Shown one piece after another: positions 6,087 through 41,537 of a stretch of DNA of 64,000 bases. Under the pieces are notes generated by a model, which saw only the letters and a list, made by a program, of their open reading frames with translations, did no database searches and had not been told where the DNA came from. The translations under genes and the position numbers were made by a program. The stretch spans positions 4,710-68,709 of the forward strand of contig CAJFRA010000004.1 of NCBI GenBank assembly GCA_904419295.1, in the 5' to 3' direction. This stretch comes from Candidatus Pseudobutyricicoccus lothianensis. GTDB lineage: Bacteria; Bacillota; Clostridia; Oscillospirales; Butyricicoccaceae. Numbering within the stretch: position 1 is the first letter of the stretch; every line of letters starts with the position of its first letter.

Positions 6087-6983
6087 TCAGCTTTCAATAA
6101 TGCCTGCTGTGCGAAGTGAATCCAACAGCTCATTTAGCTTATTTGCCACATCTTCTGCAGAAGCAGATGCTGGGGTGGCAATATTTTCAACTGCCGTGCC
6201 CGGTGTCACAGGACCAGTCGGGCCAGTGGGACCGGTGGCACCTGTTGCGCCAGCGGGGCCAACATCACCTTGCGGTCCTGTGGGACCCGTAGGGCCAGTG
6301 GCTCCCGTCGCACCGGCTGTGCCGGCGTCACCCTGCGGCCCTGTAGGACCGGTGGGACCAGTAGGACCCGTGGGCCCGGTAGGGCCAGCATCACCTTGCG
6401 GCCCTGTGGGACCGGTAGGGCCAGTGGGGCCAGTAGGACCGGTGGCACCCGTCGCGCCTGTCGCACCGGTAAGGCCCTGTGGGCCGGTGGGACCTGTGGG
6501 GCCCACTACCGACAACAAGGTAAACTGGGGCGACGTGCTGGGATCGCCCGAAGCACCATTGACATTGGCACGATATAGGCTGCCATTAAAGTAGACTAGA
6601 TCGCCTGCCTGGTAAAAGGCCGCCGGATCAAATGCCGTGGCATCGCTCACGCCGGGGCCGGCAGGGCCCGTCGGGCCAGTAGGGCCGGTAGGACCAGTCG
6701 CACCGGTAGCTCCAGGGAGACCTTGCGGGCCGGCAGGGCCGGTGGCGCCTGTCGGACCAATTGGGCCTACAGGCCCTTGGAACCCTTGCGGTCCCTGCGG
6801 GCCAGTGGGGCCGGTCGCCCCGGTGGCTCCGGTGGCACCTGTCGCACCGATCGGGCCTTGCGGGCCCATGGGGCCCGCAGGTCCCATAGGGCCGGTGGGG
6901 CCGGTAGGACCTGTAAAACAGCATGCAGGGGTACAGCAGGACCAGCGGTTCCCCCAGCTGTTGTTGTTCGAATAGCAACTCAT
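6087..6983 (-). CDS. Collagen-like triple-helix repeat protein (BclA-style spore-surface candidate) with a Cys-rich N-terminus and a central CBM5/12-like segment
   Basis: Two G-X-Y blocks (29 and 33 triplets, mostly GPT/GAT/GPQ) flank [32 protein letters not shown]. The N-terminus is [23 protein letters not shown]. Start moved to ATG 6983, which is 6 nt after GGAGGG; ATG 6989 abuts the SD. Confidence 0.9.
6207..6503 (-). repeat. Collagen G-X-Y coding repeat block 2 (33 triplets)
   Basis: 9-nt periodic GGN-CCN-ACN style repeats. These generate long spurious ORFs in other frames and on the other strand. Confidence 0.9.
6651..6911 (-). repeat. Collagen G-X-Y coding repeat block 1 (29 triplets)
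   Basis: Same repeat type as block 2. Confidence 0.9.
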
Positions 6984-7000
6984 GAACATCCCTCCGAGAG

Positions 7001-7028
7001 TATTTTATGTACTGGCCGGCCCGGTGGT
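7001..7028 (-). promoter_or_regulatory. Sigma-K-type promoter match upstream of the collagen-like gene
   Basis: The minus strand reads AC, 17 nt, then CATAAAATA, an exact fit to the B. subtilis sigma-K consensus AC-N16/17-CATAnnnTA. The implied leader is very short. Confidence 0.4.
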
Positions 7029-20318: not shown

Positions 20319-21113
20319 CTAGTTGCTGTAACCCCGCCGGTTGCCAACGGTGCGGCATCCATTGTTGTTATTGCTGTTGTTTGAATTGGTCTCCCGCATG
20401 TAATCTGCGTATTTGGGTGGGAAGAATTCATCCACGGGGAATTTGAATTGCTGGAACAGGTCACAAGGGTCGTCAACATTGCAGTTGCTGCCCGAGCAAT
20501 CCTTTTCTGGCATACAGATATCGTAGGCAGGCATCAGCAGCTGAATGTCGCGTTCCAGTTTGATGATACTGAACTGACCCAAGCTGGCAAACAGCTGTTT
20601 CCCTTCGTCACAGATCACAATGTCATCGTCAAAGCAGCGGCAAATGTTATCGGGAATGTCACTGAGCACACAGTCGCCGCAGTTGCAGCCTTCCAACACT
20701 TTGACATTCAAGCACACAGGGTCTACCACTTCCACAGTGGCAATGGGCAGGTTGGTCTTTTCAAAGTTTTGCAGATCGCAATCCTGGGGCAGATACTGAG
20801 AACTGAAGATCCGCACGCTGCCTTCGCTGCCAAACAGCACGGTGCGTTTGTCATAGGTGGCCAAACCGCAAATTTCCCGCGGACGCCCCATCCCTACGAA
20901 GGCGTCGGCCGTCACCTTATAGAAGTACTTCACGTCCACGGTATAAAAGCCTTTGTTGAACGGGATGACTTCCACATCGATGTAAGCCCAGAGCAATTCG
21001 GCCGAGCGGGCCTTTACACTGGTAGCGCTGTCCAAAATTGCTTGGGAACAGCGGGTGGGGTAGACGCGCAGATCCTGCAGGCATTCCTTATCATTGCAAG
21101 TCGCGTCTTGCAT
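20319..21113 (-). CDS. Cysteine-rich protein; proposed 3' segment of a split gene (spore coat/exosporium-type composition, family not identified)
   Basis: 264-aa ORF with 17 Cys by my count, clusters such as GCNCGDC and NICRC, and an Asn-rich tail. Its ATG directly follows the recombinase TAG in the same frame, with no SD of its own. Confidence 0.6.
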   Translation of the reverse strand: MQDATCNDKECLQDLRVYPTRCSQAILDSATSVKARSAELLWAYIDVEVIPFNKGFYTVDVKYFYKVTADAFVGMGRPREICGLATYDKRTVLFGSEGSVRIFSSQYLPQDCDLQNFEKTNLPIATVEVVDPVCLNVKVLEGCNCGDCVLSDIPDNICRCFDDDIVICDEGKQLFASLGQFSIIKLERDIQLLMPAYDICMPEKDCSGSNCNVDDPCDLFQQFKFPVDEFFPPKYADYMRETNSNNSNNNNGCRTVGNRRGYSN

Positions 21114-22580
21114 CTACTTTTCCAATGGATAAATGGTCAGCGAAAATTGCCGGCTGCCATCCTTTATGCGGTAATATTCCACCCGCGAGATCAAGCACCG
21201 GAGCAATTTGTTTTTCTCATTGATATCCTTTGTTCGGTCATAATACTCCAATGGGGAGATAGCCGGTTTATCCACGCAGCACATTTCTATTTTACGTGCC
21301 TGTTCCAGCTGGTGCAGTTGGTTTTGTGCTTCTTTTTCCCGTCGGGCCAGCTCCTGCTGCCGCCTGGCATAGTCTTCCGCCGAATAGATCCCCTGTTCCA
21401 ACAGATCGCACAGCCGGCCTTTCTGCATGCCAATTCGATGGAGCTCGCCATTCAGCGCTTCTAGTGCCCCTTGCTTTTGCCTTTCCCCCTGTGTGACCGG
21501 GCCCAGATTTTGAAAGCGGTCTGATTCCCTGGCCAGCGCGCCTAACACAGCCTGCTCCAAAGATGCCAGCGGAATAGAAGGGCTGCACCCTGCCGTGCGG
21601 CACAGCAACACAGGTTTCCCCCCTTTGCTTGGCTGGTATTGGCGCTGCAGTTTCTGGCCGCAGTGGCCGCAGAAGACCAGCCCTGCAAGAGGGTTTTTGA
21701 ATTCCCCTGTAAAATATGAGCTGTGGCTCCGGCTGGTAAACTGCCGCTGGACCTGGTCAAATTGCTGCTGGGATACCAGAGCAGGGAAGGCGTCTTTGAC
21801 TACGATCCACTCTTCCTTTGGGCGCTCTACGGCGCGGTTTGTGTCAGATGCCCGCTTCTTGCGTTGAAAGCACGTGCGGTTGTAGAGCAGCGTGCCCGTA
21901 TAGACAGGGTTTTGCAAAATGCGGCGGATGGCGGTGCGGCTCCACTGGGCAGACTTTTTAGGCGGCACACCTGCGCCGTTGAACAGACCGGCAATGCGTT
22001 GGCAGCCCTGTCCACCGGCATATAATGCAAAGGCTGTTTGCACCCAGGGCGCCGCATACGGATCAGGCTCCAAAGTAGGCCGTTTTCCTTGCCAAGCGCG
22101 GACATAGCCAAAGGGGACCTCTGAAACATGAGCTCCTTCTTTGGCAGCGGCCAAAACACCCCGGTGCATCCGCCTGACGATCAGCTTGTACTCTTGCCGC
22201 GCCATAAAGGCTTCAAACTCCGAATAGGTCTCATCCATCTCATCGTTCAGGTCGTAGACCCGCCGGGGAGTCATGATCTTACACCCAGCATGGCGGAATG
22301 TATCCAATATGATGCCTTGGGATGTCATGTCGCCCCGGCCCAACCGATCGATGTCCATACAAAGCACAGCATCATACCGAAGGGCGCCCACATCTTCCAG
22401 CAGACGGAGCATCTGTGGGCGCAAGTAGAGGCTGCTGCCTGAAACGACCTCCTCGTACACCTGTGCGATGCAAAGGCCTTGCTGCTGTGCAAAATCCAGC
22501 AAGGTCTGCCGGTGCCGGCTCAGTACATCGGGATCTCCTTCGTCGCTGCGGGATTTGCGCAGGTAAATAGCGGCAGTCAT
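21114..22580 (-). CDS. Large serine recombinase
   Basis: 488 aa. N-terminal resolvase catalytic domain (AAIYLRKSRSDE...DRLGR), a recombinase domain, a Cys4 zinc ribbon (CGHCG...CRTAGC) and a C-terminal coiled-coil. Confidence 0.9.
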   Translation of the reverse strand: MTAAIYLRKSRSDEGDPDVLSRHRQTLLDFAQQQGLCIAQVYEEVVSGSSLYLRPQMLRLLEDVGALRYDAVLCMDIDRLGRGDMTSQGIILDTFRHAGCKIMTPRRVYDLNDEMDETYSEFEAFMARQEYKLIVRRMHRGVLAAAKEGAHVSEVPFGYVRAWQGKRPTLEPDPYAAPWVQTAFALYAGGQGCQRIAGLFNGAGVPPKKSAQWSRTAIRRILQNPVYTGTLLYNRTCFQRKKRASDTNRAVERPKEEWIVVKDAFPALVSQQQFDQVQRQFTSRSHSSYFTGEFKNPLAGLVFCGHCGQKLQRQYQPSKGGKPVLLCRTAGCSPSIPLASLEQAVLGALARESDRFQNLGPVTQGERQKQGALEALNGELHRIGMQKGRLCDLLEQGIYSAEDYARRQQELARREKEAQNQLHQLEQARKIEMCCVDKPAISPLEYYDRTKDINEKNKLLRCLISRVEYYRIKDGSRQFSLTIYPLEK

Positions 22581-22696
22581 ACCATCACCTACTTTCGTAA
22601 AGTCATAATTGGCTGCAAAAAGGGGTAAGACCTGTCCTTACAAAGAATTTTCCGGTGCGTACTGGAATGCGATAAAGTCAGGCCTGCCTTGCCTCC

Positions 22697-22724
22697 ATTC
22701 TATGCAAGTCAAGTGCAGCTATGA
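22697..22724 (-). promoter_or_regulatory. Sigma-E-like promoter match upstream of the recombinase gene
   Basis: The minus strand reads TCATAGC, 13 nt, then CATAGAAT, against the B. subtilis sigma-E consensus TCATATT-13/15-CATACAAT. It lies about 115 nt upstream of the ATG. Confidence 0.35.
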
Positions 22725-22807
22725 ATGCAGCCATTGAGTCCCCCGGTGTGGCTCGGCTTCCGGCTTTTCCTCCATCTGATGGTTTCTCCGGCCTGCTATT
22801 GTAAAAT

Positions 22808-22848
22808 GAAAAAACCTGGCCGGTACCCCATACCGTGCCAGGTTTTTG
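22808..22848 (-). terminator. Rho-independent terminator after the flavodoxin-like gene, insulating the recombinase gene
   Basis: AACCTGGC-CGGTA...TACCG-T-GCCAGGTT long hairpin flanked by A-run and T-run, so T-tracts are present on both strands. Confidence 0.7.
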
Positions 22849-22863
22849 TTCGGCTGTTCCCAC

Positions 22864-23391
22864 TTAGTCGCAAGGCAGGCTGCGGCCAAACTGGTAAAAT
22901 TCATCCAAAATCGCCGGCGTCTTCTGCTCTTTTCCAAAGACTGTTTTTACCCCCAGATCTTGCAAATGGAGATAATCCAGGAACGAGTTTTGATATTCGT
23001 ATAAAGCACCGCCATATACATTGTCGCTGCCCGAGCTGAGGAACATTGCCGCTTTTTTCAAGTTTTTCGGCTTATCCAGGGCATAAATGCGGTGAATGGC
23101 ACACTGCAGTTGGGCGGTAAAGCCATGGTAATACACCGGCGAAGCCAGCACTAACATCTCTGCTTCTTCCAGCAGTGGGTAGATCTGCTGCATGTCATCC
23201 TGCTGGATGCAACGGCCGTTCCCTTTGGTATGGCAGTACTCACAAGCACGGCATCCGGCAATTTTCATTTGTGCCACTTGAAAGACATCTACTTGATGCC
23301 CCGCTTCTCGTGCTCCTTTTGCAAAAGCTTCCACCATCGCCGCCGTATTTCCCTGCGGCCGGGGGCTTCCGTTCCATACCAATATTTTCAT
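22864..23391 (-). CDS. Flavodoxin-like fold NAD(P)H-dependent FMN reductase family protein
   Basis: MKILVWNGSPRPQGNTAAMV...LVLASPVYYHGFTAQL. Start at ATG 23391, 8 nt after AGGAGG. Confidence 0.8.
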   Translation of the reverse strand: MKILVWNGSPRPQGNTAAMVEAFAKGAREAGHQVDVFQVAQMKIAGCRACEYCHTKGNGRCIQQDDMQQIYPLLEEAEMLVLASPVYYHGFTAQLQCAIHRIYALDKPKNLKKAAMFLSSGSDNVYGGALYEYQNSFLDYLHLQDLGVKTVFGKEQKTPAILDEFYQFGRSLPCD

Positions 23392-23562
23392 CACAGTTTC
23401 CTCCTATCCAGATCATGCAGTTTTTTTGCGCTGCGAAAACACAGCAAAATGTCCATGTGCCGCTTTCAGCGACAAGGCCAGGGAATCAAAGCATATGGTC
23501 CTGATATTCACATATACACCTCGGCTTTTTCCCGTGCTGGTAATGTACTGCAGGCTCGTGAA

Positions 23563-24687
23563 TCATGCTTCCAAGGTTTGAGCCACTTGGGCCAAATGGC
23601 GGATGATGGGCAGTTTTTGCGGGCATTTGCTCTCACACTGGCCACACCCAATGCACTGGGATGCCTTTCCATGTTTTTCTGCCAGTACCGCATACCGTGC
23701 CTTGGCCTCAGCCTGCCAGCCATCTTGCCGATGCTGGTTATACAGGCTGAAGTAACGGGGGATGGGGATGCCCTGGGGGCACCCACTGGTGCAGTAGCTA
23801 CAGCCTGTGCAGGGGATCGACACTTCCTGACGCAAGATCGCGGCACACTGGCGCAGGATCTGCTCTTCTTGTTCATCCAATGGCTGAAAATCCTTCATAT
23901 AAGAAATGTTGTCCTCGACCTGCTCCAAGTTGGACATACCGGATAGCACCATAGCCACGCCTGGTTGGCTGGCGGCAAACCGAATGGCCCAGCTGGCCGG
24001 GCTGTGCCCGGGAGCATGGCGCTCCATCATTTGTTGGGCTTGCACAGGCACAGCCGCTAAAGTGCCTCCTTTGACAGGCTCCATCACGATTATGGGCTTT
24101 CCATGGCGGACACAGACATCATGGCACAAGCGGGATTGAATGACCGCGTGATCCCAGTCCAAATAATTCAACTGGATCTGTACCACATCCACTTCGGGGT
24201 GTTCCCGGAGGATCTGGTCGAGCACTGTGGCACTGTCGTGAAAGGAAAAACCGGTGGCCCGAATACGGCCTTGGCCTTTTAATTCTTGAAGCAGCTGAAA
24301 ACATCCCAACTTTTGGGCCAAGGCATATGTACGGGCGTTGAGGCCGTGAAGCAAATAGCAGTCAAAATAGTCTACACCGCATTTCATCAGCTGCTCTTCA
24401 AAATACTGCAGCGGGTTGCTGTCTTCCTTCATTTCCAGGCAGGGCATTTTTGTAGTCAGCCAAAAGGATTCCCTTGGGTGCCGTTCCACCAAAGCCTGCC
24501 GCATAAAAGATTCGCTTTTGTAGTCCAGATAAGAATAAGCAGTATCAAAATAGCGAAACCCGGCCGCCAAAAAACGGTCTACCATGGCACACAATTGCTC
24601 CATATCCACATCACTGGGGTCATCTGGGTCTATATGGGGCAGCCGTAGGCAGCCAAATCCCAATTTTTTGCCTTCTTCTAAAAACAT
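23563..24687 (-). CDS. Aldo/keto reductase with a C-terminal 2x[4Fe-4S] ferredoxin-like domain
   Basis: AKR N-terminus (LGFGCLRLP...FDTAYSY) and two C-terminal Cys clusters (CTGCSYCTSGCP, CIGCGQCESKCP). Start at ATG 24687, after AGGAGGAG. Confidence 0.85.
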   Translation of the reverse strand: MFLEEGKKLGFGCLRLPHIDPDDPSDVDMEQLCAMVDRFLAAGFRYFDTAYSYLDYKSESFMRQALVERHPRESFWLTTKMPCLEMKEDSNPLQYFEEQLMKCGVDYFDCYLLHGLNARTYALAQKLGCFQLLQELKGQGRIRATGFSFHDSATVLDQILREHPEVDVVQIQLNYLDWDHAVIQSRLCHDVCVRHGKPIIVMEPVKGGTLAAVPVQAQQMMERHAPGHSPASWAIRFAASQPGVAMVLSGMSNLEQVEDNISYMKDFQPLDEQEEQILRQCAAILRQEVSIPCTGCSYCTSGCPQGIPIPRYFSLYNQHRQDGWQAEAKARYAVLAEKHGKASQCIGCGQCESKCPQKLPIIRHLAQVAQTLEA

Positions 24688-24839
24688 GTTCACTCCTCCT
24701 GCCATTCCGTTCTCATGATTCCATCTTAAAGGCGCCTCCCGCGGAAGTCAAATACTTGATTCGGATACCCGGCAATGCGCGGCAAGCATGGTTTTAAAGG
24801 ACATGCACTGCCGCATAGGGATGGTCTGAGGTGATCGAA

Positions 24840-25061
24840 ATGGTCCAACCCGATTGGAAAGAAGGGGATGTGGCCTGGGAAGCCGACCTCCAGCTGGCAA
24901 ACGGCTATGTATGCCATGTCCGGGTCTTGCATCCCAGCCCCCGCGGGATCTTAGCCCAGCTGAAAGCCATTGGCCGCTTGACCAACTGTGTCTGGTCTTA
25001 CGATGGCCAAACAGCAGAGCAGTGGGAGAAGGCACTGGAAGAAAGCCAACAAAAGGAGTGA
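24840..25061 (+). CDS. Small hypothetical protein (73 aa)
   Basis: GAGGTGA SD 5 nt upstream of ATG 24840, and a strong terminator immediately downstream. I recognise no family. Confidence 0.45.
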   Translation: MVQPDWKEGDVAWEADLQLANGYVCHVRVLHPSPRGILAQLKAIGRLTNCVWSYDGQTAEQWEKALEESQQKE

Positions 25062-25063
25062 CA

Positions 25064-25090
25064 GCCGGCGGTTTAGCCCGCCGGTTTTTT
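25064..25090 (+). terminator. Rho-independent terminator
   Basis: CCGGCGG-TTTAGC-CCGCCGG followed by TTTTTT. Confidence 0.75.
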
Positions 25091-25160
25091 CATGTTCTGT
25101 CTCCTTAAGAATCGCTTGATCTCAAAGCAGAAAAAATGCAATCACCAGGCAATTTTTCTC

Positions 25161-25189
25161 TTGCAAAATGCAGGGGAATGGACTATTAT
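25161..25189 (+). promoter_or_regulatory. Sigma-A-type promoter candidate for clpB
   Basis: TTGCAA (25161..25166), a 17-nt spacer, then TATTAT (25184..25189), directly upstream of CIRCE. Confidence 0.5.
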
Positions 25190-25193
25190 AATA

Positions 25194-25220
25194 TTAGCAC
25201 TCAGGGTGATAGAGTGCTAA
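25194..25220 (+). promoter_or_regulatory. CIRCE operator (HrcA binding site)
   Basis: TTAGCACTC-agggtgata-GAGTGCTAA is an exact match to the CIRCE consensus TTAGCACTC-N9-GAGTGCTAA. It lies 40 nt upstream of the clpB ATG. Confidence 0.9.
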
Positions 25221-25260
25221 TATTCCTATAAACTGTAAATACGAAGGAGGTCCTTCCTCT

Positions 25261-27876
25261 ATGAACTTAAATCAATTCACGCAAAAATCTGTAGCCGCCA
25301 TACAAGCGGCCCAAAGCCTGGCTGTAGAGCATGGCAACCAGCAGATCGAGCAGGCACATCTGCTGCTGGCACTGTTGCAGGATGACCAAGGGCTGGTGCC
25401 CCAATTGCTGACCGCCATGGGCACTGCCGTGTCAAACTTTACAGAAAACGTTCAGGCATTGGTGGAACGGCTGCCCAAGGTCTCAGGCGGTGGCCGAGAG
25501 GCAGACAAAGTTTACATCTCCCAGCAGGTGGATCAGGCGTTGCAGCAAGCCGAGCAAGTGCGTATCTCCATGCAGGACGAGTATGTTTCCGTGGAGCACC
25601 TGTTCCTTGGTTTGCTGGACAAGGCCGATCAAACACTGAAAGAGCTGTTCCGCACGTTCTCCATCACCCAAGAGAAAATCATGCGGGCTTTGGCCTCTGT
25701 TCGTGGCAACCAGCGAGTGACCAGCGACAACCCAGAAGAGACCTATAATGCTCTGAAAAAATACGGCACAGACCTGGTGGAGCAGGCCCGCAAAAACAAG
25801 CTGGACCCGGTGATCGGGCGGGACGATGAGATACGCAATGTCATCCGCATTCTATCCCGCAAGAGCAAAAACAATCCGGTGCTCATCGGGGAACCCGGCG
25901 TGGGCAAAACAGCCATTGCCGAAGGGCTTGCCCAGCGAATCGTCAAAGGGGATGTGCCCGGCAGCCTAAAAGATAAGACCATCTTTTCACTGGACATGGG
26001 CAGCCTAGTGGCCGGCGCCAAGTACCGCGGCGAGTTCGAAGAACGCCTCAAAGCAGTCTTGAATGAAGTGCGCAAATCCGAAGGGCGTATCTTACTGTTT
26101 ATCGATGAGCTGCACACCATTGTGGGCGCCGGCAAGACCGAGGGTTCCATGGATGCCGGCAACTTGCTCAAACCCATGCTGGCCCGGGGTGAGCTGCACT
26201 GCATTGGTGCAACCACACTCAACGAATACCGTCAATACATCGAAAAAGATGCCGCTCTGGAGCGGCGCTTCCAGCCTGTTATGGTCAACGAACCCTCGGT
26301 GGAGGATGCGATCGCCATCTTGCGCGGTCTGAAAGAGCGGTATGAAGTTTTCCACGGCGTCAAAATCACAGATGGTGCGATCATCGCCGCTGCAACTTTG
26401 AGCAATCGCTATATCTCCGATCGCTTTTTGCCCGACAAGGCCATCGACCTGATTGATGAAGCCTGTGCCATGGTGCGTACCGAGATCGACTCCATGCCCA
26501 CTGAGCTGGATGTGATCCGCCGCCGGATCATCCAGCACGAGATTGAGGAAGCGGCTCTGAAAAAAGAGACAGATAAGCTTTCCAAAGAGCATCTGCAAGA
26601 GATCCAAAAAGAACTGGCCGAGATGCGCGAGGAGTTCAACGCCAAAAAGGCCCAGCTGGACAACGAGAAGAACGCCATTGGCAAAGTGCAAAAATTGCGG
26701 GAAGAGCTGGAAACTGCCAACGCCGCTTTGGAAAAAGCCCAGCGGGAATACGATCTGAACCGGGCGGCCGAGCTGCAGTACGGCAAGATCCCCGCCCTAA
26801 AAAAGGAGCTGGAAGAGGAAGAGGAGCTGGCCAGCCAAAGCAAGGCCCAATCGCTGCTGCGGGATAAAGTGACCGAAGAAGAGATCGCCAAGATCATCCA
26901 GCGTTGGACCGGTATCCCTGTCTCCCGTTTGATGGAGAGCGAGAGAGAGAAGCTTTTGCATTTGGAAGACATTCTGCATCAGAGAGTGGTAGGGCAGGAT
27001 GAAGCGGTCCGTCTGGTGGCAGAAGCGATTCTGCGCAGCCGTGCCGGCATTGCGGACCCCAACAAACCCATCGGCTCTTTCTTATTCCTCGGTCCCACCG
27101 GTGTGGGGAAGACCGAGCTTGCCAAAACCCTGGCTCAAGCTCTGTTTGACAGCGAAAAAAATTTGGTGCGCATCGACATGTCGGAATACATGGAAAAATT
27201 CAGCGTATCCCGCCTGATCGGCGCTCCTCCGGGATATGTGGGCTATGAAGAAGGGGGGCAACTCACAGAAGCGGTGCGACGCAAGCCCTACAGCGTCATC
27301 TTGTTCGACGAAGTGGAAAAAGCCCATCCCGATGTGTTCAACATCTTGCTGCAAGTGTTGGACGACGGCCGCATTACCGATAGCCAAGGCCGCACAGTGG
27401 ATTTTAAAAATACCATCATCATCTTGACTTCCAACTTGGGCAGCCAGTTCTTGCTGGATGGCATCGGCCCCGATGGCGAGATCAGCCAGCAGGCCAAAGA
27501 CCAGGTCAATCAGCTGCTGCGTCAATCCTTCCGGCCAGAGTTTCTCAACCGGCTGGATGAGATCGTCTTCTACAAGCCGCTGACAAAGGAGAATATCACC
27601 AGCATCATCGACCTGTTGGTAGCGGGTCTGAACCAACGCTTGGCCGACAAACAGCTGACTGTCCAGCTGACCCCGGCTGCCAAGCAGTATATCATCGACA
27701 GCGCTTACGATCCCATCTATGGCGCCCGTCCTTTGCGCCGCTTTTTGCAGCATACTGTGGAAACCCTCATCAGCAAAAAGATCATTGCCGACCAGGTGGA
27801 ACCCGATGCTTGTTTGCTTGTGGACTGTGTTGCCGGAGAATTGACAGTGGAGAGCCAAACTGTACAGGACAAATAA
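25261..27876 (+). CDS. clpB: ATP-dependent chaperone ClpB
   Basis: 871 aa. Clp N-domain, two AAA+ modules ([10 protein letters not shown] and [12 protein letters not shown] Walker A motifs) and a long middle coiled-coil. Confidence 0.95.
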
Positions 27877-27886
27877 ACTGCTTTCG

Positions 27887-27927
27887 CCGTGTGGCCACCG
27901 GAAGATTTCCGGGCCACACGGTTTTTT
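27887..27927 (+). terminator. Rho-independent terminator after clpB
   Basis: CCGTGTGGCC, loop, GGCCACACGG, followed by TTTTTT. Confidence 0.85.
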
Positions 27928-27952
27928 CTGCAAGAAGATACTTGTTGTTCTC

Positions 27953-28049
27953 TGCAAGAGTCGTATACTTTGCGCGTATGGATGCAAACAGCCTCTTTGG
28001 GCGGATGGTTTCCGCAGAGCGGGCCCGGTGAAACCTTATCAGGCATCAA
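27953..28049 (-). other. Proposed 5' segment (32 codons) of the split Cys-rich CDS
   Basis: AGGAGG (28064..28059) lies 9 nt before TTG 28049. It encodes MMPDKVSPGPLCGNHPPKEAVCIHTRKVYDSC up to the CTTGCA core. Beyond the core, the same ORF runs through the clpB terminator and antisense into clpB. Confidence 0.35.
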
Positions 28050-28237
28050 AGCAGATTACCTCCTGAATCAAATTTGAAGTTTCCTTCAATACATCATATT
28101 CCACAGAGGCCCAGTGGTGCATGGTTGCCGCGGCGGCCTGGAGTGCTTTTCCGGGCTTTTGTGCCATTTGCCGGTTGACATCCGCGCCAGATGGGGTAAA
28201 GTAGAGGGAGAACATGCAAACAAAAGGAGAAAAAATC

Positions 28238-38291: not shown

Positions 38292-38320
38292 TCATATCCT
38301 CTGCTGCCACTGCATAAGAT
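38292..38320 (+). promoter_or_regulatory. Sigma-E-like promoter match upstream of the spoIIM-like gene
   Basis: TCATATC (38292..38298), a 14-nt spacer, then CATAAGAT (38313..38320). Confidence 0.4.
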
Positions 38321-38331
38321 GGCAGCAGAGG
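38298..38331 (+). promoter_or_regulatory. Perfect 12-bp inverted repeat overlapping the promoter match and the SD of the spoIIM-like gene
   Basis: CCTCTGCTGCCA, a 10-nt loop, then TGGCAGCAGAGG. The 3' arm runs into GAGGTGA, the SD for ATG 38340. Confidence 0.6.
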
Positions 38332-38339
38332 TGACGAAA

Positions 38340-38942
38340 ATGACTCGAAAGAGAAAGCGGGACATGCGCTTGCCAATGCCTGCGGGAACTGTATTGCTGT
38401 TGCTCTGCCTTGCTTTGGGGGCGTTGGCTGGCAGTTTGTTGTTCCGTGGCAGTCTGCCGCAAGCGCAGGATCTGACCGCACAATTGGATCGCCAGGCCTC
38501 TGCTGGCCGCCTGGCTCTATTTTTTACTCTCTTCTGGGACAGCCTACGCTACTTAGTGCCGTTATTTCTGTGTGCCTATTTTCGTTTCGGCGCTTTTGCT
38601 GTACCACTTCTTTTTGCGGCTAAAGGTTTTTCTTTGGCCCGTACAGCAACTGCTTTTTTGGCAAGCTATGGCCTGCGTGGATATGGAGCCTTTTGGCTGG
38701 CTTACTGTATCAACGGCTTTTTTGTCCTATTGTGTTTGCTGGCATTGGGGAGCCGCGTTATAGCCTTGTGCTGTGGGCAACGGAGCGTCCCCCGAGGCCA
38801 CCATTCTTTTCTGCGCATTCATCCTGGGCCAGCGTATTATGAATGTGCTTTGGTCTGCTTGGCACTTTGCCTGCTATGCAGTCTGGTCGGCTGTATTCTG
38901 ACTCCACTTTTCAGCACTGCAGCACTTGCCATGATCACTTGA
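38340..38942 (+). CDS. spoIIM: Stage II sporulation protein M-like membrane protein
   Basis: About 200 aa with 5 TM segments, a basic N-terminus and an FAAKGFSL segment comparable to the KG motif of SpoIIM. Its position next to xerD matches other Firmicutes. The start is either 38340 or 38319. Confidence 0.5.
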   Translation: MTRKRKRDMRLPMPAGTVLLLLCLALGALAGSLLFRGSLPQAQDLTAQLDRQASAGRLALFFTLFWDSLRYLVPLFLCAYFRFGAFAVPLLFAAKGFSLARTATAFLASYGLRGYGAFWLAYCINGFFVLLCLLALGSRVIALCCGQRSVPRGHHSFLRIHPGPAYYECALVCLALCLLCSLVGCILTPLFSTAALAMIT

Positions 38943-38963: not shown

Positions 38964-39860
38964 ATGGAAGACCGGTTTCTCGGTTTCCGCCGCTATTTGG
39001 TACAGCAAAAACGAGCGGCCCCCAATACGGTTGCATCCTATTTGCGGGATGTTGCCGGCCTGGACCGGTTCGCCGGTTTTTCTGCCGATATCGATTATGC
39101 AGCAGCTTCTCCTGACCTGGTGTCTAGTTATCTAAACCAGCTAAAAGACCAAGGGCGGAAACCTTCTACTTTAAATCGGGTGCGTGCTTCGATCAGCTGC
39201 TACTATCGCTATTTGACCGAACAGGGGATCGCAAACGGGAACCCGGCCAAATCTGTCCCTTTGCCACTGCCCAGCCGGAGCATACCTGCCATTTTGACAA
39301 CAGCAGAGATGGACCGGTTATTGTCTGCCCCAAACGATCACGACATATTATCCTGCCGGGATCGAGCCATGTTGGAACTGTTGTATGCCACCGGGCTCAA
39401 AGTAACGGCATTGACTGCGTTGAATGTGGACGATCTGCATTTGGACATGGGGTTTTTGCGCAGTGCCGGCCGGCATGAGCGGATGCTCCCGTTGTATCAG
39501 ACTGCGGTGGACAAGCTGCGGGAATATATCAAACGCCGCCCTGCGTTGCTGCAAGACCCAGGGGAGCCTGCCTTGTTCGTCAACAGCAATGGAGGCCGGT
39601 TGACGCGCCAAGGTTTTTGGAAGATCATCAAGCAGCGTGCCCGCCAAGCCGGCATCCAAAAGGATATCACGCCCCAAAGTTTGCGCCATTCCTTGGCCAT
39701 TCATCTGCTGCAGAATGGAGCCACACCCCAAGACCTTCAGCAGATCTTGGGATACGAAGATCCAACCGCAGCCCAGCAGTACGCCAAACTGTTTCGCCAG
39801 AGTTGGATGGGAAACTACAGTCAACTTCATCCCCGGGCCGGGAAAAAGGGGAGCTGCTGA
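38964..39860 (+). CDS. xerD: Tyrosine recombinase XerD-like
   Basis: 298 aa. SAM-like N-domain (FLGFRRYLVQQKRAAPNTVASYLRDV) and a catalytic domain with R...HxxR...Y (LRHSLAIHLLQNG...LGYEDPTAAQQY). Confidence 0.8.
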   Translation: MEDRFLGFRRYLVQQKRAAPNTVASYLRDVAGLDRFAGFSADIDYAAASPDLVSSYLNQLKDQGRKPSTLNRVRASISCYYRYLTEQGIANGNPAKSVPLPLPSRSIPAILTTAEMDRLLSAPNDHDILSCRDRAMLELLYATGLKVTALTALNVDDLHLDMGFLRSAGRHERMLPLYQTAVDKLREYIKRRPALLQDPGEPALFVNSNGGRLTRQGFWKIIKQRARQAGIQKDITPQSLRHSLAIHLLQNGATPQDLQQILGYEDPTAAQQYAKLFRQSWMGNYSQLHPRAGKKGSC

Positions 39861-40338: not shown

Positions 40339-40421
40339 AATTCCATTGACGCGCAGCCACGCCAGCGTTGCTTTTTAAATTTTTTCATTTCCTAAGCTTT
40401 TCCCAGAAAGGACTGTTCTTC

Positions 40422-41537
40422 ATGGATTACCGCGCTGAAGCGCCAGAAGAAATCCGAAATTATTTAACGTATATGGAAACCATCCGCGGCCGGTCACGCC
40501 GCACCTGCCAAGAATATTTTTTGGATCTTCGTACATTTTTCCGTTTTTTGTTGCGCAAGCGCCAACTGGTGCCTGCCGATACACCTTTTGAACAAATTTC
40601 GATCGATTGCGTGGATCTGGATCTGATTTCCAGCGTTACATTGACCGATCTTTACGATTTTCTCAGTTTTGCCAGTCACGATCTCCCCAAATATCACAAA
40701 AGTGCTTCTTCCCCCACTGGAAACGGCGCCAGCGCCCGTTCCCGTAAAGTAGCGGCCCTCCGTTCCTTTTACCGGTATTTGACCGAAAAAGTGCATAAAA
40801 TCGAGCACAATCCAGTACAAAACTTGGATTCTCCCAAACTCAAACGGTCACTCCCACGCCACCTTTCTTTTCAGGAAAGCGTGGATCTGCTCCAGCACAT
40901 TGACAGCGAATATCCGGAGCGGGATTACTGCATCATCACATTATTTTTAAACTGCGGGCTGCGGGTATCCGAATTGGTGGGCATCAACCGGGGTGATGTG
41001 CGCGGCGATACGCTGCGTGTGCTGGGCAAGGGCAACAAAGAACGCATTGTCTATTTAAACGAAGCCTGCCAACAAGCCATACAAGCCTATTTGCCTACCC
41101 GCATCCAACCGCGGCCCGAAGATGCCAATGCCCTATTTATCAGTCGTTTGGGCCGCCGCATCAGTGCTCAAACCGTGAAATGGATGGTCGGACGCCAGCT
41201 GGAAAAGGCCGGTTTGGGCGACAAAAATTATTCGGCTCACAAATTGCGCCACACAGCTGCTACGCTCATGTATCAAAACGGCGTAGATGTGCGCACATTG
41301 AAAGAAGTGCTGGGCCATGAAAACCTGGATACCACTATGATTTATACCCATGTGACTGACGACAATATGAAACAAGCTGCCCAATATAGCCCGTTGGCCC
41401 ATGTGGTGCCGCCTCGGCGAGAAAAAAAATCCGCCGTGCAATCCAAAGACCCGGTGGATCAAAAAACAGAGGACTCATCTCCCCTATCATCGGAGCAAAA
41501 CGAAGCAGAGACAGCAGATGCCGCCGATCGCGAATGA
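40422..41537 (+). CDS. Tyrosine recombinase (XerC/integrase family) with an acidic, low-complexity C-terminal tail
   Basis: IRNYLTYMETIRGRSRRTCQEYFLDLRTFFRFL N-domain, and a catalytic domain with ...HKLRHTAATLMYQNG...LGHENLDTTMIYTH. The tail PPRREKKSAVQSKDPVDQKTEDSSPLSSEQNEAETADAADRE is extra. Confidence 0.85.
   Translation: MDYRAEAPEEIRNYLTYMETIRGRSRRTCQEYFLDLRTFFRFLLRKRQLVPADTPFEQISIDCVDLDLISSVTLTDLYDFLSFASHDLPKYHKSASSPTGNGASARSRKVAALRSFYRYLTEKVHKIEHNPVQNLDSPKLKRSLPRHLSFQESVDLLQHIDSEYPERDYCIITLFLNCGLRVSELVGINRGDVRGDTLRVLGKGNKERIVYLNEACQQAIQAYLPTRIQPRPEDANALFISRLGRRISAQTVKWMVGRQLEKAGLGDKNYSAHKLRHTAATLMYQNGVDVRTLKEVLGHENLDTTMIYTHVTDDNMKQAAQYSPLAHVVPPRREKKSAVQSKDPVDQKTEDSSPLSSEQNEAETADAADRE

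Follow-up and report, generated by a model that had tools for sequence, protein, structure and literature searches.

Why does one strand of this locus carry what look like two pieces of a single cysteine-rich (Cys-rich) gene, nearly seven kilobases apart, with a recombinase gene set directly against one of them? The locus lies in a stretch of 64,000 nucleotides from Candidatus Pseudobutyricicoccus lothianensis (assembly GCA_904419295.1, contig CAJFRA010000004.1, positions 4,710 to 68,709 of the forward strand), which as a whole is referred to below as the window. A preliminary description of this DNA had proposed that a Cys-rich coding sequence is split here by an element resembling skin, which interrupts sigK. 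We find that the two pieces are one normally continuous gene, interrupted by a 6,858-bp element, and we regard this structural reading, an intervening element inserted in a Cys-rich gene, as practically certain. The fuller proposal, that the element is excised in the mother cell during sporulation and the gene thereby rebuilt, is in our judgement probable, although with considerable room for doubt.

A cysteine-rich gene interrupted by an insertion

The two pieces of the gene are the following.

27951..28046, minus strand: 5′ fragment of the Cys-rich gene, codons 1-32 (MPDKVSPGPLCGNHPPKEAVCIHTRKVYDSCR), matched by the N-termini of intact homologues
20319..21090, minus strand: 3′ fragment of the Cys-rich gene, from the last base of codon 33 to the stop codon, 257 residues (DKECLQDLRVY...)

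The start signals of the 5′ fragment are a Shine-Dalgarno (SD) sequence, AGGAGG, at 28064..28059, a TTG at 28049 and an ATG at 28046, all on the minus strand; the open reading frame (ORF) opens with MPDKVSPGPLCGNHPPKEAVCIHTRKVYDSC and then continues into the clpB terminator. The 264-amino-acid (aa) Cys-rich ORF at the other end (21113..20319) has an ATG that comes directly after the TAG of a 488-aa recombinase ORF (22580..21114). The SD sequence, the TTG start, the abutting TAG and ATG, the two copies of a CTTGCA hexamer and the 6,858-bp offset between them had been pointed out in the preliminary description, and all are present as described.

When the fragments were fused in silico and the product was searched against 5.8 billion protein clusters, 2,201 homologues were recovered, nearly all of them uninterrupted and 270-300 aa long; the family is Cys-rich, with 280-300 aa as its typical length. 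The homologues inspected start MPDKVSPGPL...VCIHTRKVYDSCRDKECLQDLRVY (KVYDSCRDKEC). They cover the 32-aa 5′ piece and align continuously across the junction, which the preliminary description had proposed as a check on its reading, and the 3′ fragment aligns with their residues 33-289 with no stop or frameshift. The gene for the best full-length relative, P0002 (85% identical), is found on L001, a contig of 77 kb, where the gene order is radA, amidase, comB, intact gene, 2-hydroxyacid dehydrogenase, BrkB, nitroreductase. The same gene order flanks the two window fragments, and in L001 neither clpB nor a recombinase gene stands beside the intact gene, which fills the interval from comB to the 2-hydroxyacid dehydrogenase gene, in agreement with what had been predicted for relatives that lack the element. 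Because L001 holds the intact gene in identical synteny, the 6,858 bp that separate the fragments in the window are an insertion. The two minus-strand fragments are thus a single gene, continuous in relatives and split here, and precise removal of the intervening DNA restores the ORF. The claim of a split coding sequence is therefore borne out both by the homologues and by the L001 orthologue.

The crossover point and the attachment sites

The point of insertion was determined by aligning the window DNA with the intact L001 gene. On the 5′ side the two match up to …TCT TGC AGA GA, and on the 3′ side from GA T AAG GAA TGC…, and the GA are the only bases that belong to both junction sides. The crossover is thereby placed at this dinucleotide, two nucleotides 3′ of the CTTGCA hexamer, and the attachment sites are as follows.

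27924..27976, minus strand: attL, consisting of host arm B, the GA core (27950..27949) and element arm P′
21066..21118, minus strand: attR, consisting of element arm P, which overlaps the recombinase stop codon, the GA core (21092..21091) and host arm B′

Natural triads of empty and occupied sites from other genomes (L008 compared with L061 and L014, and L007 compared with L062, L063 and L013) have only (T)GA in common among attB, attL and attR. Recombination at GA yields TGC-AGA-GAT-AAG, or C-R-D-K, which restores the conserved CRDKEC, and the rebuilt ORF has 289 aa from the ATG (...YDSC-R-DKEC...) after a deletion of 6,858 bp. The junctions expected after excision are …TCTTGCAGAGATAAGGAATGC… for attB and …CTTGCAATGAACAACAAG… for attP on the circle. 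The reconstructed attP (P-GA-P′) has dyad symmetry about the GA at 15 of 26 positions (p≈4e-4), whereas the hybrid sites are not symmetric (9 of 26 for attL, 7 of 26 for attR). Three other element lineages have an attP dyad at 15, 19 and 20 of the 26 positions, so that the four lineages together span 15-20. The locus therefore displays a short shared core and inverted-repeat attP arms around a central dinucleotide, and this is the architecture expected of a large serine recombinase.

The preliminary description had placed the crossover inside CTTGCA, a hexamer that is in frame and present at both junctions, and had offered a second TGCAAG, at 27929, as an alternative junction. The deletion of 6,858 bp that it deduced stands, but a crossover in the hexamer would give ...YDSC-NDKEC... 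with the attB product TGCAATGAT, and thus N at residue 32, where a crossover at GA gives R. Intact genes read TG(C/T)-(AGA/CGT)-GA(T/C); the R codon is found in the host arm, in attL, while the AAT is in the element arm. Across the four lineages GA alone is common to all (TGA in two of them), and it is also the centre of the attP dyad. Further, the residues flanking the junction are nearly invariant in an alignment of 59 homologues, and every homologue inspected reads SCR(D/E)KEC. A crossover within CTTGCA or its copy at 27929 is for these reasons very improbable, and the second copy is irrelevant, since the comparison with intact-gene DNA and the attP symmetry both point to GA. A crossover at a shared CGACT was also considered and ruled out, as it would introduce a frameshift.

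Contents and ancestry of the element

The element (21093..27950, 6,858 bp) contains the following features.

21114..22580, minus strand: large serine recombinase, 488 aa (Pfam PF00239 Resolvase, PF07508 Recombinase and PF13408 Zn-ribbon)
22864..23394, minus strand: cargo gene, NADPH-dependent FMN reductase/flavodoxin-like (Pfam PF03358)
23563..24705, minus strand: cargo gene, aldo/keto reductase with a C-terminal 4Fe-4S dicluster domain (Pfam PF00248 and Fer4 families)
24813..24822, plus strand: -10-like box of orf73, GCATAGGGAT
24840..25061, plus strand: orf73, 73 aa, good SD, candidate recombination directionality factor (RDF), shared with related elements
25063..25086, plus strand: intrinsic terminator of orf73
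25194..25220, plus strand: perfect CIRCE/HrcA operator, TTAGCACTC-N9-GAGTGCTAA, in front of clpB
25261..27876, plus strand: cargo gene clpB, 871 aa (NCBIfam TIGR03346, 1349 bits, above cutoff)

The element thus encodes a large serine recombinase and this gene is intact: the N-terminal catalytic motif YLRKS(10)R is kept, all three Pfam domains are present, and PHROG 95, an integrase family, is matched at 1e-100. It sits at the extreme end of the element and adjoins the 3′ fragment, as had been noted before. The co-orientation of the recombinase with the 3′ half is not a universal layout, because in L027, which has an element of about 3.4 kb at the same codon (5′ fragment 2638-2733, 3′ fragment 6181-6939), the recombinase is antisense to the gene. 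In L060, L061 and L067-L072 the recombinase is at the attL end instead.

Apart from the recombinase and orf73 the element holds clpB and two oxidoreductase genes, so that the earlier impression of a cargo that is housekeeping-like rather than phage-derived was accurate. clpB has its own sigma70-like promoter, detected in a promoter scan, and since it is preceded by a CIRCE operator, the element-borne copy is wired into the host heat-shock regulon. There is no compositional contrast between the element (53.3% GC) and the window (53.7%). Scans with Pfam, NCBIfam and PHROG models revealed no phage structural, replication, packaging, transfer or repressor genes in the window element, which accordingly lacks the set of structural, packaging, lysis and lysogeny-control genes that defines a temperate prophage.

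That set is present in relatives of the element. In a scan of one genome per species, at least five further genomes had this gene interrupted at the same GA, and the window recombinase is 57-61% identical to the recombinases of elements and prophages that occupy this site. Complete prophages lie there in L063-L066, with CI/Cro-type repressors, DnaB, terminase, portal, capsid and sheath, and with a 492-aa recombinase, 59% identical to that of the window, adjoining the 3′ fragment. In these prophages an orf73 homologue immediately follows the cro-like genes, which is a usual position for an excision factor. L062 combines a recombinase and an orf73 homologue with DnaB and a hydrolase, and L067-L072, L060 and L061 have a recombinase and a small orf73-like ORF, divergently arranged at the attL end, together with ABC-transporter cargo. 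Besides the recombinase, orf73 is the only gene of the window element with homologues in related elements and prophages; no cargo gene is shared, and clpB is missing from all other elements at this site. The orf73 family is small (22 clusters among the 5.8 billion), and every context examined was an element in the same Cys-rich gene. Because the recombinase and orf73 form the core that is shared across four types of cargo, we propose that orf73 encodes the RDF of the element. IMG/VR also contains more distant prophages, whose recombinases share only 33-40% identity with that of the window; these adjoin the 3′ fragment at residues 31-33, and since they use the same position, codon 33 is an old and widely used attB. 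The element is of phage ancestry and, judged by its gene content, is a degenerate prophage remnant in which the recombinase and orf73 are apparently the only phage genes left.

The closest ClpB proteins from outside the species are 87% identical (Lawsonibacter/Pseudoflavonifractor, which by ClpB are its closest named relatives) and are encoded in an ordinary hsp20-clpB locus. Two contigs of the window species from one sample (ERZ27234799) diverge from the window inside clpB: L112 has the order Crp…clpB′, 5′ fragment, comB, and L117 the order recombinase, FMN reductase, aldo/keto reductase, orf73, clpB″, a different 2-hydroxyacid dehydrogenase, GH3. These contigs represent either a strain rearrangement by way of a second clpB locus or a chimeric assembly.

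Promoters and a model for excision

Three features bear on when the split gene and the recombinase might be expressed.

28092..28118, minus strand: sigmaK-type promoter of the split gene, ACCACTGGGCCTCTGTGG-AATATGATG, of the form AC-N16-[C/A]ATAnnnTG
28074..28089, minus strand: hairpin in the 5′ untranslated region, TTGAAG-loop-CTTCAA, between promoter and SD and just downstream of the sigmaK-type -10
22697..22724, minus strand: sigmaE-like promoter upstream of the recombinase, TCATAGC-N13-CATAGAAT, a consensus match only

A sigmaK-type pattern, AC-N15-17-[C/A]ATAnnnT, is found at a constant distance from the start codon in 35 of 36 homologous loci, compared with a mean of 2.2 and a maximum of 8 in shuffled sequences. 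It agrees with the sigmaK consensus known from C. difficile and B. subtilis, with AC at -35 and CATA… at -10 (PMC3789822). The motif is infrequent, with only 7 matches in 128 kb (both strands of the window). The hairpin recurs in about 30 loci, that is in nearly all of the homologue upstream regions, with a loop that varies from 3 to 8 nt, and lies at the predicted 5′ end of the mRNA, where it could serve as a stabilising stem-loop or as the site of a regulator. Based on promoter type and composition, the split gene most likely encodes a component of the spore coat or exosporium.

Elsewhere in the window, a sigmaK-type promoter (ACCACCGGGCCGGCCAGTACATAAAATA, 7001..7028, minus strand) is directly upstream of a collagen-repeat, BclA-like gene (6087..6989, minus strand), which is probably another spore-surface gene; the -35 region of this promoter is strikingly similar to that of the split gene.

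A strict sigmaE pattern, [TG][ACT]ATA-N15-17-CATAnA[ACT]T, has a single match in the 128 kb, and this match lies, correctly oriented, in the 283 bp that precede the recombinase gene. When the pattern is relaxed there are four matches in the window, one of them immediately before spoIIM, which in B. subtilis is a classical sigmaE gene. This sigmaE-like motif is at 38294..38320 and the SpoIIM-family gene directly downstream at 38319..38942, both on the plus strand; a XerD-like ORF, so named from its N-terminal sequence only (38964..39860, plus strand), and a gene with Pfam Phage_integrase domains (40368..41537, plus strand) follow. The FMN reductase cargo gene is preceded by a second relaxed match (23490..23515, minus strand, ATA-N16-CATATGCT) and may be expressed together with the recombinase gene in the mother cell. 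A GCATAnnnAT box precedes the start codon of every orf73 homologue by 20-30 nt. The window encodes a CwlD-like amidase as well as SpoIIM, and the organism therefore has sporulation genes, as the preliminary description had remarked.

These observations may be combined in a model. The element would have originated by attP x attB integration at the GA in codon 33, catalysed by the large serine recombinase, and would later have lost phage genes and gained cargo. In the mother cell of a sporulating bacterium the recombinase, expressed from the sigmaE-like promoter, would act together with the orf73 product to recombine attL with attR, releasing a circle of 6,858 bp. The 289-aa ORF (...YDSCRDKEC...) would thereby be rebuilt and then expressed from the sigmaK-type promoter, while the copy in the forespore, the germ line, would remain interrupted. 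The model would follow the same logic as spoIVCA/skin and SprB/SPbeta, in that expression of the recombinase and RDF under an early mother-cell sigma factor would bring about excision, and the repaired gene would afterwards be transcribed by sigmaK.

Comparison with known intervening elements

With an interrupted gene, a recombinase and attachment sites of this architecture, the window element belongs by structure with skin, SPbeta and gin. The structural part of the earlier, skin-like interpretation is upheld by the dyad attP at the crossover, the recombinase, and the prophages and cargo variants with related recombinases at the same codon, and the sigmaK-type promoter of the target also fits that interpretation. 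Searches of the literature turned up no element described from this gene or from Oscillospiraceae.

Like skin in sigK (SpoIVCA/SkrB in B. subtilis, CD1231 and CD1234 in C. difficile; PMC5025042), the window element resembles a degenerate prophage that keeps a recombinase, located at one end, and a protein of about 70 aa, which in skin is the RDF and in the window a candidate for it. Skin excision is under the mother-cell sigma cascade, with sigmaE acting on spoIVCA in B. subtilis and sigmaE and SpoIIID on CD1234 (PMC5025042). The target of skin, however, is a sigma-factor gene, so that excision gates the cascade, whereas the target in the window looks structural and, by promoter match, sigmaK-dependent; the cargo of a heat-shock chaperone and oxidoreductases is a further difference. 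SPbeta in spsM of B. subtilis (SprA and SprB; PMC4191935, PMC5499854) has a late, spore-surface-related target, as the window element probably does. Active prophages and defective derivatives occur at the same site in related strains, and its RDF is among the phage early genes. In contrast to this 134-kb inducible phage, the window element is without phage functions, and its recombinase and candidate RDF are unrelated to those of SPbeta in sequence.

The gin element in gerE of Bacillus cereus ATCC10987 (GirC and the RDF GirX; PMC5595907) is a non-phage element in a late mother-cell gene and is excised by a large serine recombinase with a small RDF, to which the recombinase and the candidate RDF of the window element would correspond. 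Its attachment site, too, has an imperfect inverted repeat around central dinucleotides. Its recombinase and RDF genes are both sporulation-regulated (PMC5595907). It differs in its length of 28.6 kb, its three recombinases and its host among the Bacilli; the window element, of 6.9 kb and with one recombinase, is from Oscillospiraceae and has an uncharacterised target, and its excision is a prediction. The yin element in yabG of Clostridium botulinum (PMC10747680) is clostridial, has a large serine recombinase as the window element does, and interrupts a sigmaK-dependent target, which the gene in the window would be as well. A small RDF with a putative sigmaK promoter has been predicted for yin (PMC10747680). 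The yin element is a prophage unique to one strain, whereas the site in the window is occupied in many species by many types of element.

Selection, fixation and alternative explanations

If the split gene were no longer repaired, its halves should have begun to degenerate. The split copies have no stops and no frameshifts, and the ratio of nonsynonymous to synonymous substitution rates (dN/dS) between them is 0.03-0.17, which is also the range found among intact copies. All of the approximately twelve nucleotide differences between the 5′ fragment of the window and the intact L001 gene are synonymous, and two further gut metagenome contigs carry an identical 5′ fragment. In an index of public assemblies, 98 blocks contain the exact 264-aa fragment. 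Among the 22 contigs read that carry the exact 3′ fragment, 19 have the window arrangement, one of them identical over 20.8 kb, and the search of 5.8 billion protein clusters gave no intact allele with an identity of at least 90%. The element thus appears to be fixed in this species of the human gut.

Several results weigh against the proposal of developmental excision. The promoter assignments are consensus matches, partly chosen after the sequence had been seen, and are leads rather than proof; the box upstream of orf73 has no clean -35 element. The whole basis for a spore role of the Cys-rich protein is the type of its promoter and its composition. The protein has no match in Pfam, NCBIfam, PHROGs or a PDB sequence profile, and its AlphaFold model (predicted local distance difference test score 68) gave no significant fold match to the PDB with Foldseek; the model has a confident β-sheet core at residues ~36-120, and the N-terminal and post-~120 Cys-rich segments are of low confidence. 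PF27077, which is listed for some homologues, was not reproduced with a local copy of Pfam. Likewise orf73 has no Pfam, NCBIfam or PHROG family and does not resemble known RDFs. As a rule, however, RDFs are not related to one another, and the absence of a detectable family is typical of them. One of them, CD1234 of C. difficile, with 72 aa, is likewise an orphan (PMC5025042). Selection in the split state could not be gauged by within-species dN/dS, as there is too little variation. Finally, excised forms were sought in assembled contigs. Among metagenome contigs, a degenerate 38-nt pattern for attL, attR, attB and attP found only two integrated attL copies (98-99% identity) and neither attB nor attP. 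A second degenerate pattern, for attP, was derived from the positions conserved among the arms of the window, L013/L062 and L063, and had no match among viral contigs. These negatives are weak evidence, because assemblies show the majority, vegetative form and rarely the products of mother cells.

The same findings may be read in other ways. The insertion might be a fossil that has lost the ability to excise and has left the gene permanently inactive in the species, the halves being intact through recency or slow drift. The missing junctions and the lack of an intact allele would then be expected, the cargo does resemble domesticated host genes in its GC content and CIRCE operator, and the Cys-rich gene is evidently dispensable for growth. 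Further, shortened or interrupted recombinases exist at related loci (336 aa in L044-L046, an apparent frameshift in L060, 430 aa in L116). But in the window the recombinase and orf73 are intact though all other phage genes are gone, and the pair is also retained by three other elements whose cargo has been replaced. The promoter, the SD and both halves of the gene are intact too, and dN/dS is not above that of uninterrupted genes. Because phage gene loss and cargo gain imply a long residence, an unselected ORF of 870 bp should by now have decayed. We therefore consider a fossil insertion unlikely. Equally, the element may be mobile rather than developmental and excise for its own transfer, or act as an on/off switch in vegetative cells (active lysogeny or phase variation), with repair of the gene incidental. 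Its sister elements are complete prophages with CI/Cro switches, which must excise on induction, yin is excised at all growth phases in C. botulinum (PMC10747680), and the sigma factors are assigned from motif matches only. Several facts argue the other way. The window element is without repressor, replication, packaging or transfer genes; the one strict sigmaE-like motif of the window precedes the recombinase; and the target gene is sigmaK-type, so that repair matters only in the mother cell. Moreover, in the genome of LBM23126, described below, ligA, ispH and scpA lie between attL and attR, and vegetative excision there should be lethal. Excision unconnected with development is thus also rather unlikely, if perhaps not quite as much so as a fossil insertion. 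The last alternative, an assembly artefact or chance ORFs, is effectively refuted. Chimeric joins may occur nearby, in that the contigs of one sample break inside clpB (L112 and L117), but the same arrangement is found in about 20 independent assemblies, the 20.8-kb identity among them, and both junctions were recovered separately. Developmental excision remains the account that we favour.

A wider pattern and its meaning

Of about 53 species-representative genomes that were retrieved, about 23 have the gene split, and the splits fall at three or more sites; this fraction, about 40%, is a biased estimate, as the genomes were retrieved with peptide patterns from the window protein. A second split site, at residue ~153 (…EAVVE|T-LDPL…), is found in L043-L056, which are Butyricicoccus-like genomes and metagenome-assembled genomes of Intestinibacillus and related bacteria. 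The inserts at this site, only 1.4-3.2 kb long, are made up of a serine recombinase of smaller size (433 aa in L049) and an antisense NUDIX gene, and the attP arms (GTTCCGATTGCTGCGGCACA and TGTGCCTCAGCAATCGGAAC) are again dyad-symmetric. L057 is split at this site too, and L058 belongs with it, because its 3′ fragment, with a recombinase directly upstream, starts near residue 149. A third site is near residue 75 (L040-L042), where a recombinase 32-33% identical to that of the window is directly upstream of the 3′ fragment; the 5′ fragment was not found within 10 kb.

In the complete genome of Oscillospiraceae LBM23126 (CP176394.1, 1633216-1652704; L059:10105-20105 and L017:1-10000), 19.5 kb separate attL from attR. 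This interval holds the recombinase together with core chromosomal genes: ligA, yunB, an ispH-S1 fusion, rpiR, dacB-like, scpA, lysA-like and lon. With the CIRCE-controlled clpB of the window, it suggests that such elements can trap host genes. Excision, if these elements are still capable of it, would be tolerated only by the terminal mother cell, and the housekeeping cargo raises the idea that elements become unlosable through the capture of host genes.

As a whole, these results lead us to a broader hypothesis, which we put forward tentatively and hold to be possible rather than probable. Mother-cell rearrangement of this spore-surface-type gene may be common, and may have evolved repeatedly, in gut Oscillospiraceae and Butyricicoccus-like bacteria, by means of unrelated serine recombinases and elements that range from 1.4-kb units to full prophages, with captured housekeeping genes making an element unlosable from the germ line and with orf73 as a new family of RDFs. 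To our knowledge, only a few Bacilli and pathogenic Clostridia have been shown to rearrange genes developmentally by means of intervening elements. Should excision of the window element be confirmed, the phenomenon would extend to abundant, hard-to-culture commensals of the human gut, and a new, widely conserved, sigmaK-type Cys-rich protein would be named as a likely component of the spore surface. The elements at a single attB would form a natural series from active prophage to cargo-swapped remnant to minimal recombinase unit, and would provide new sets of recombinase, attB and attP, with a candidate RDF family, for genome engineering.

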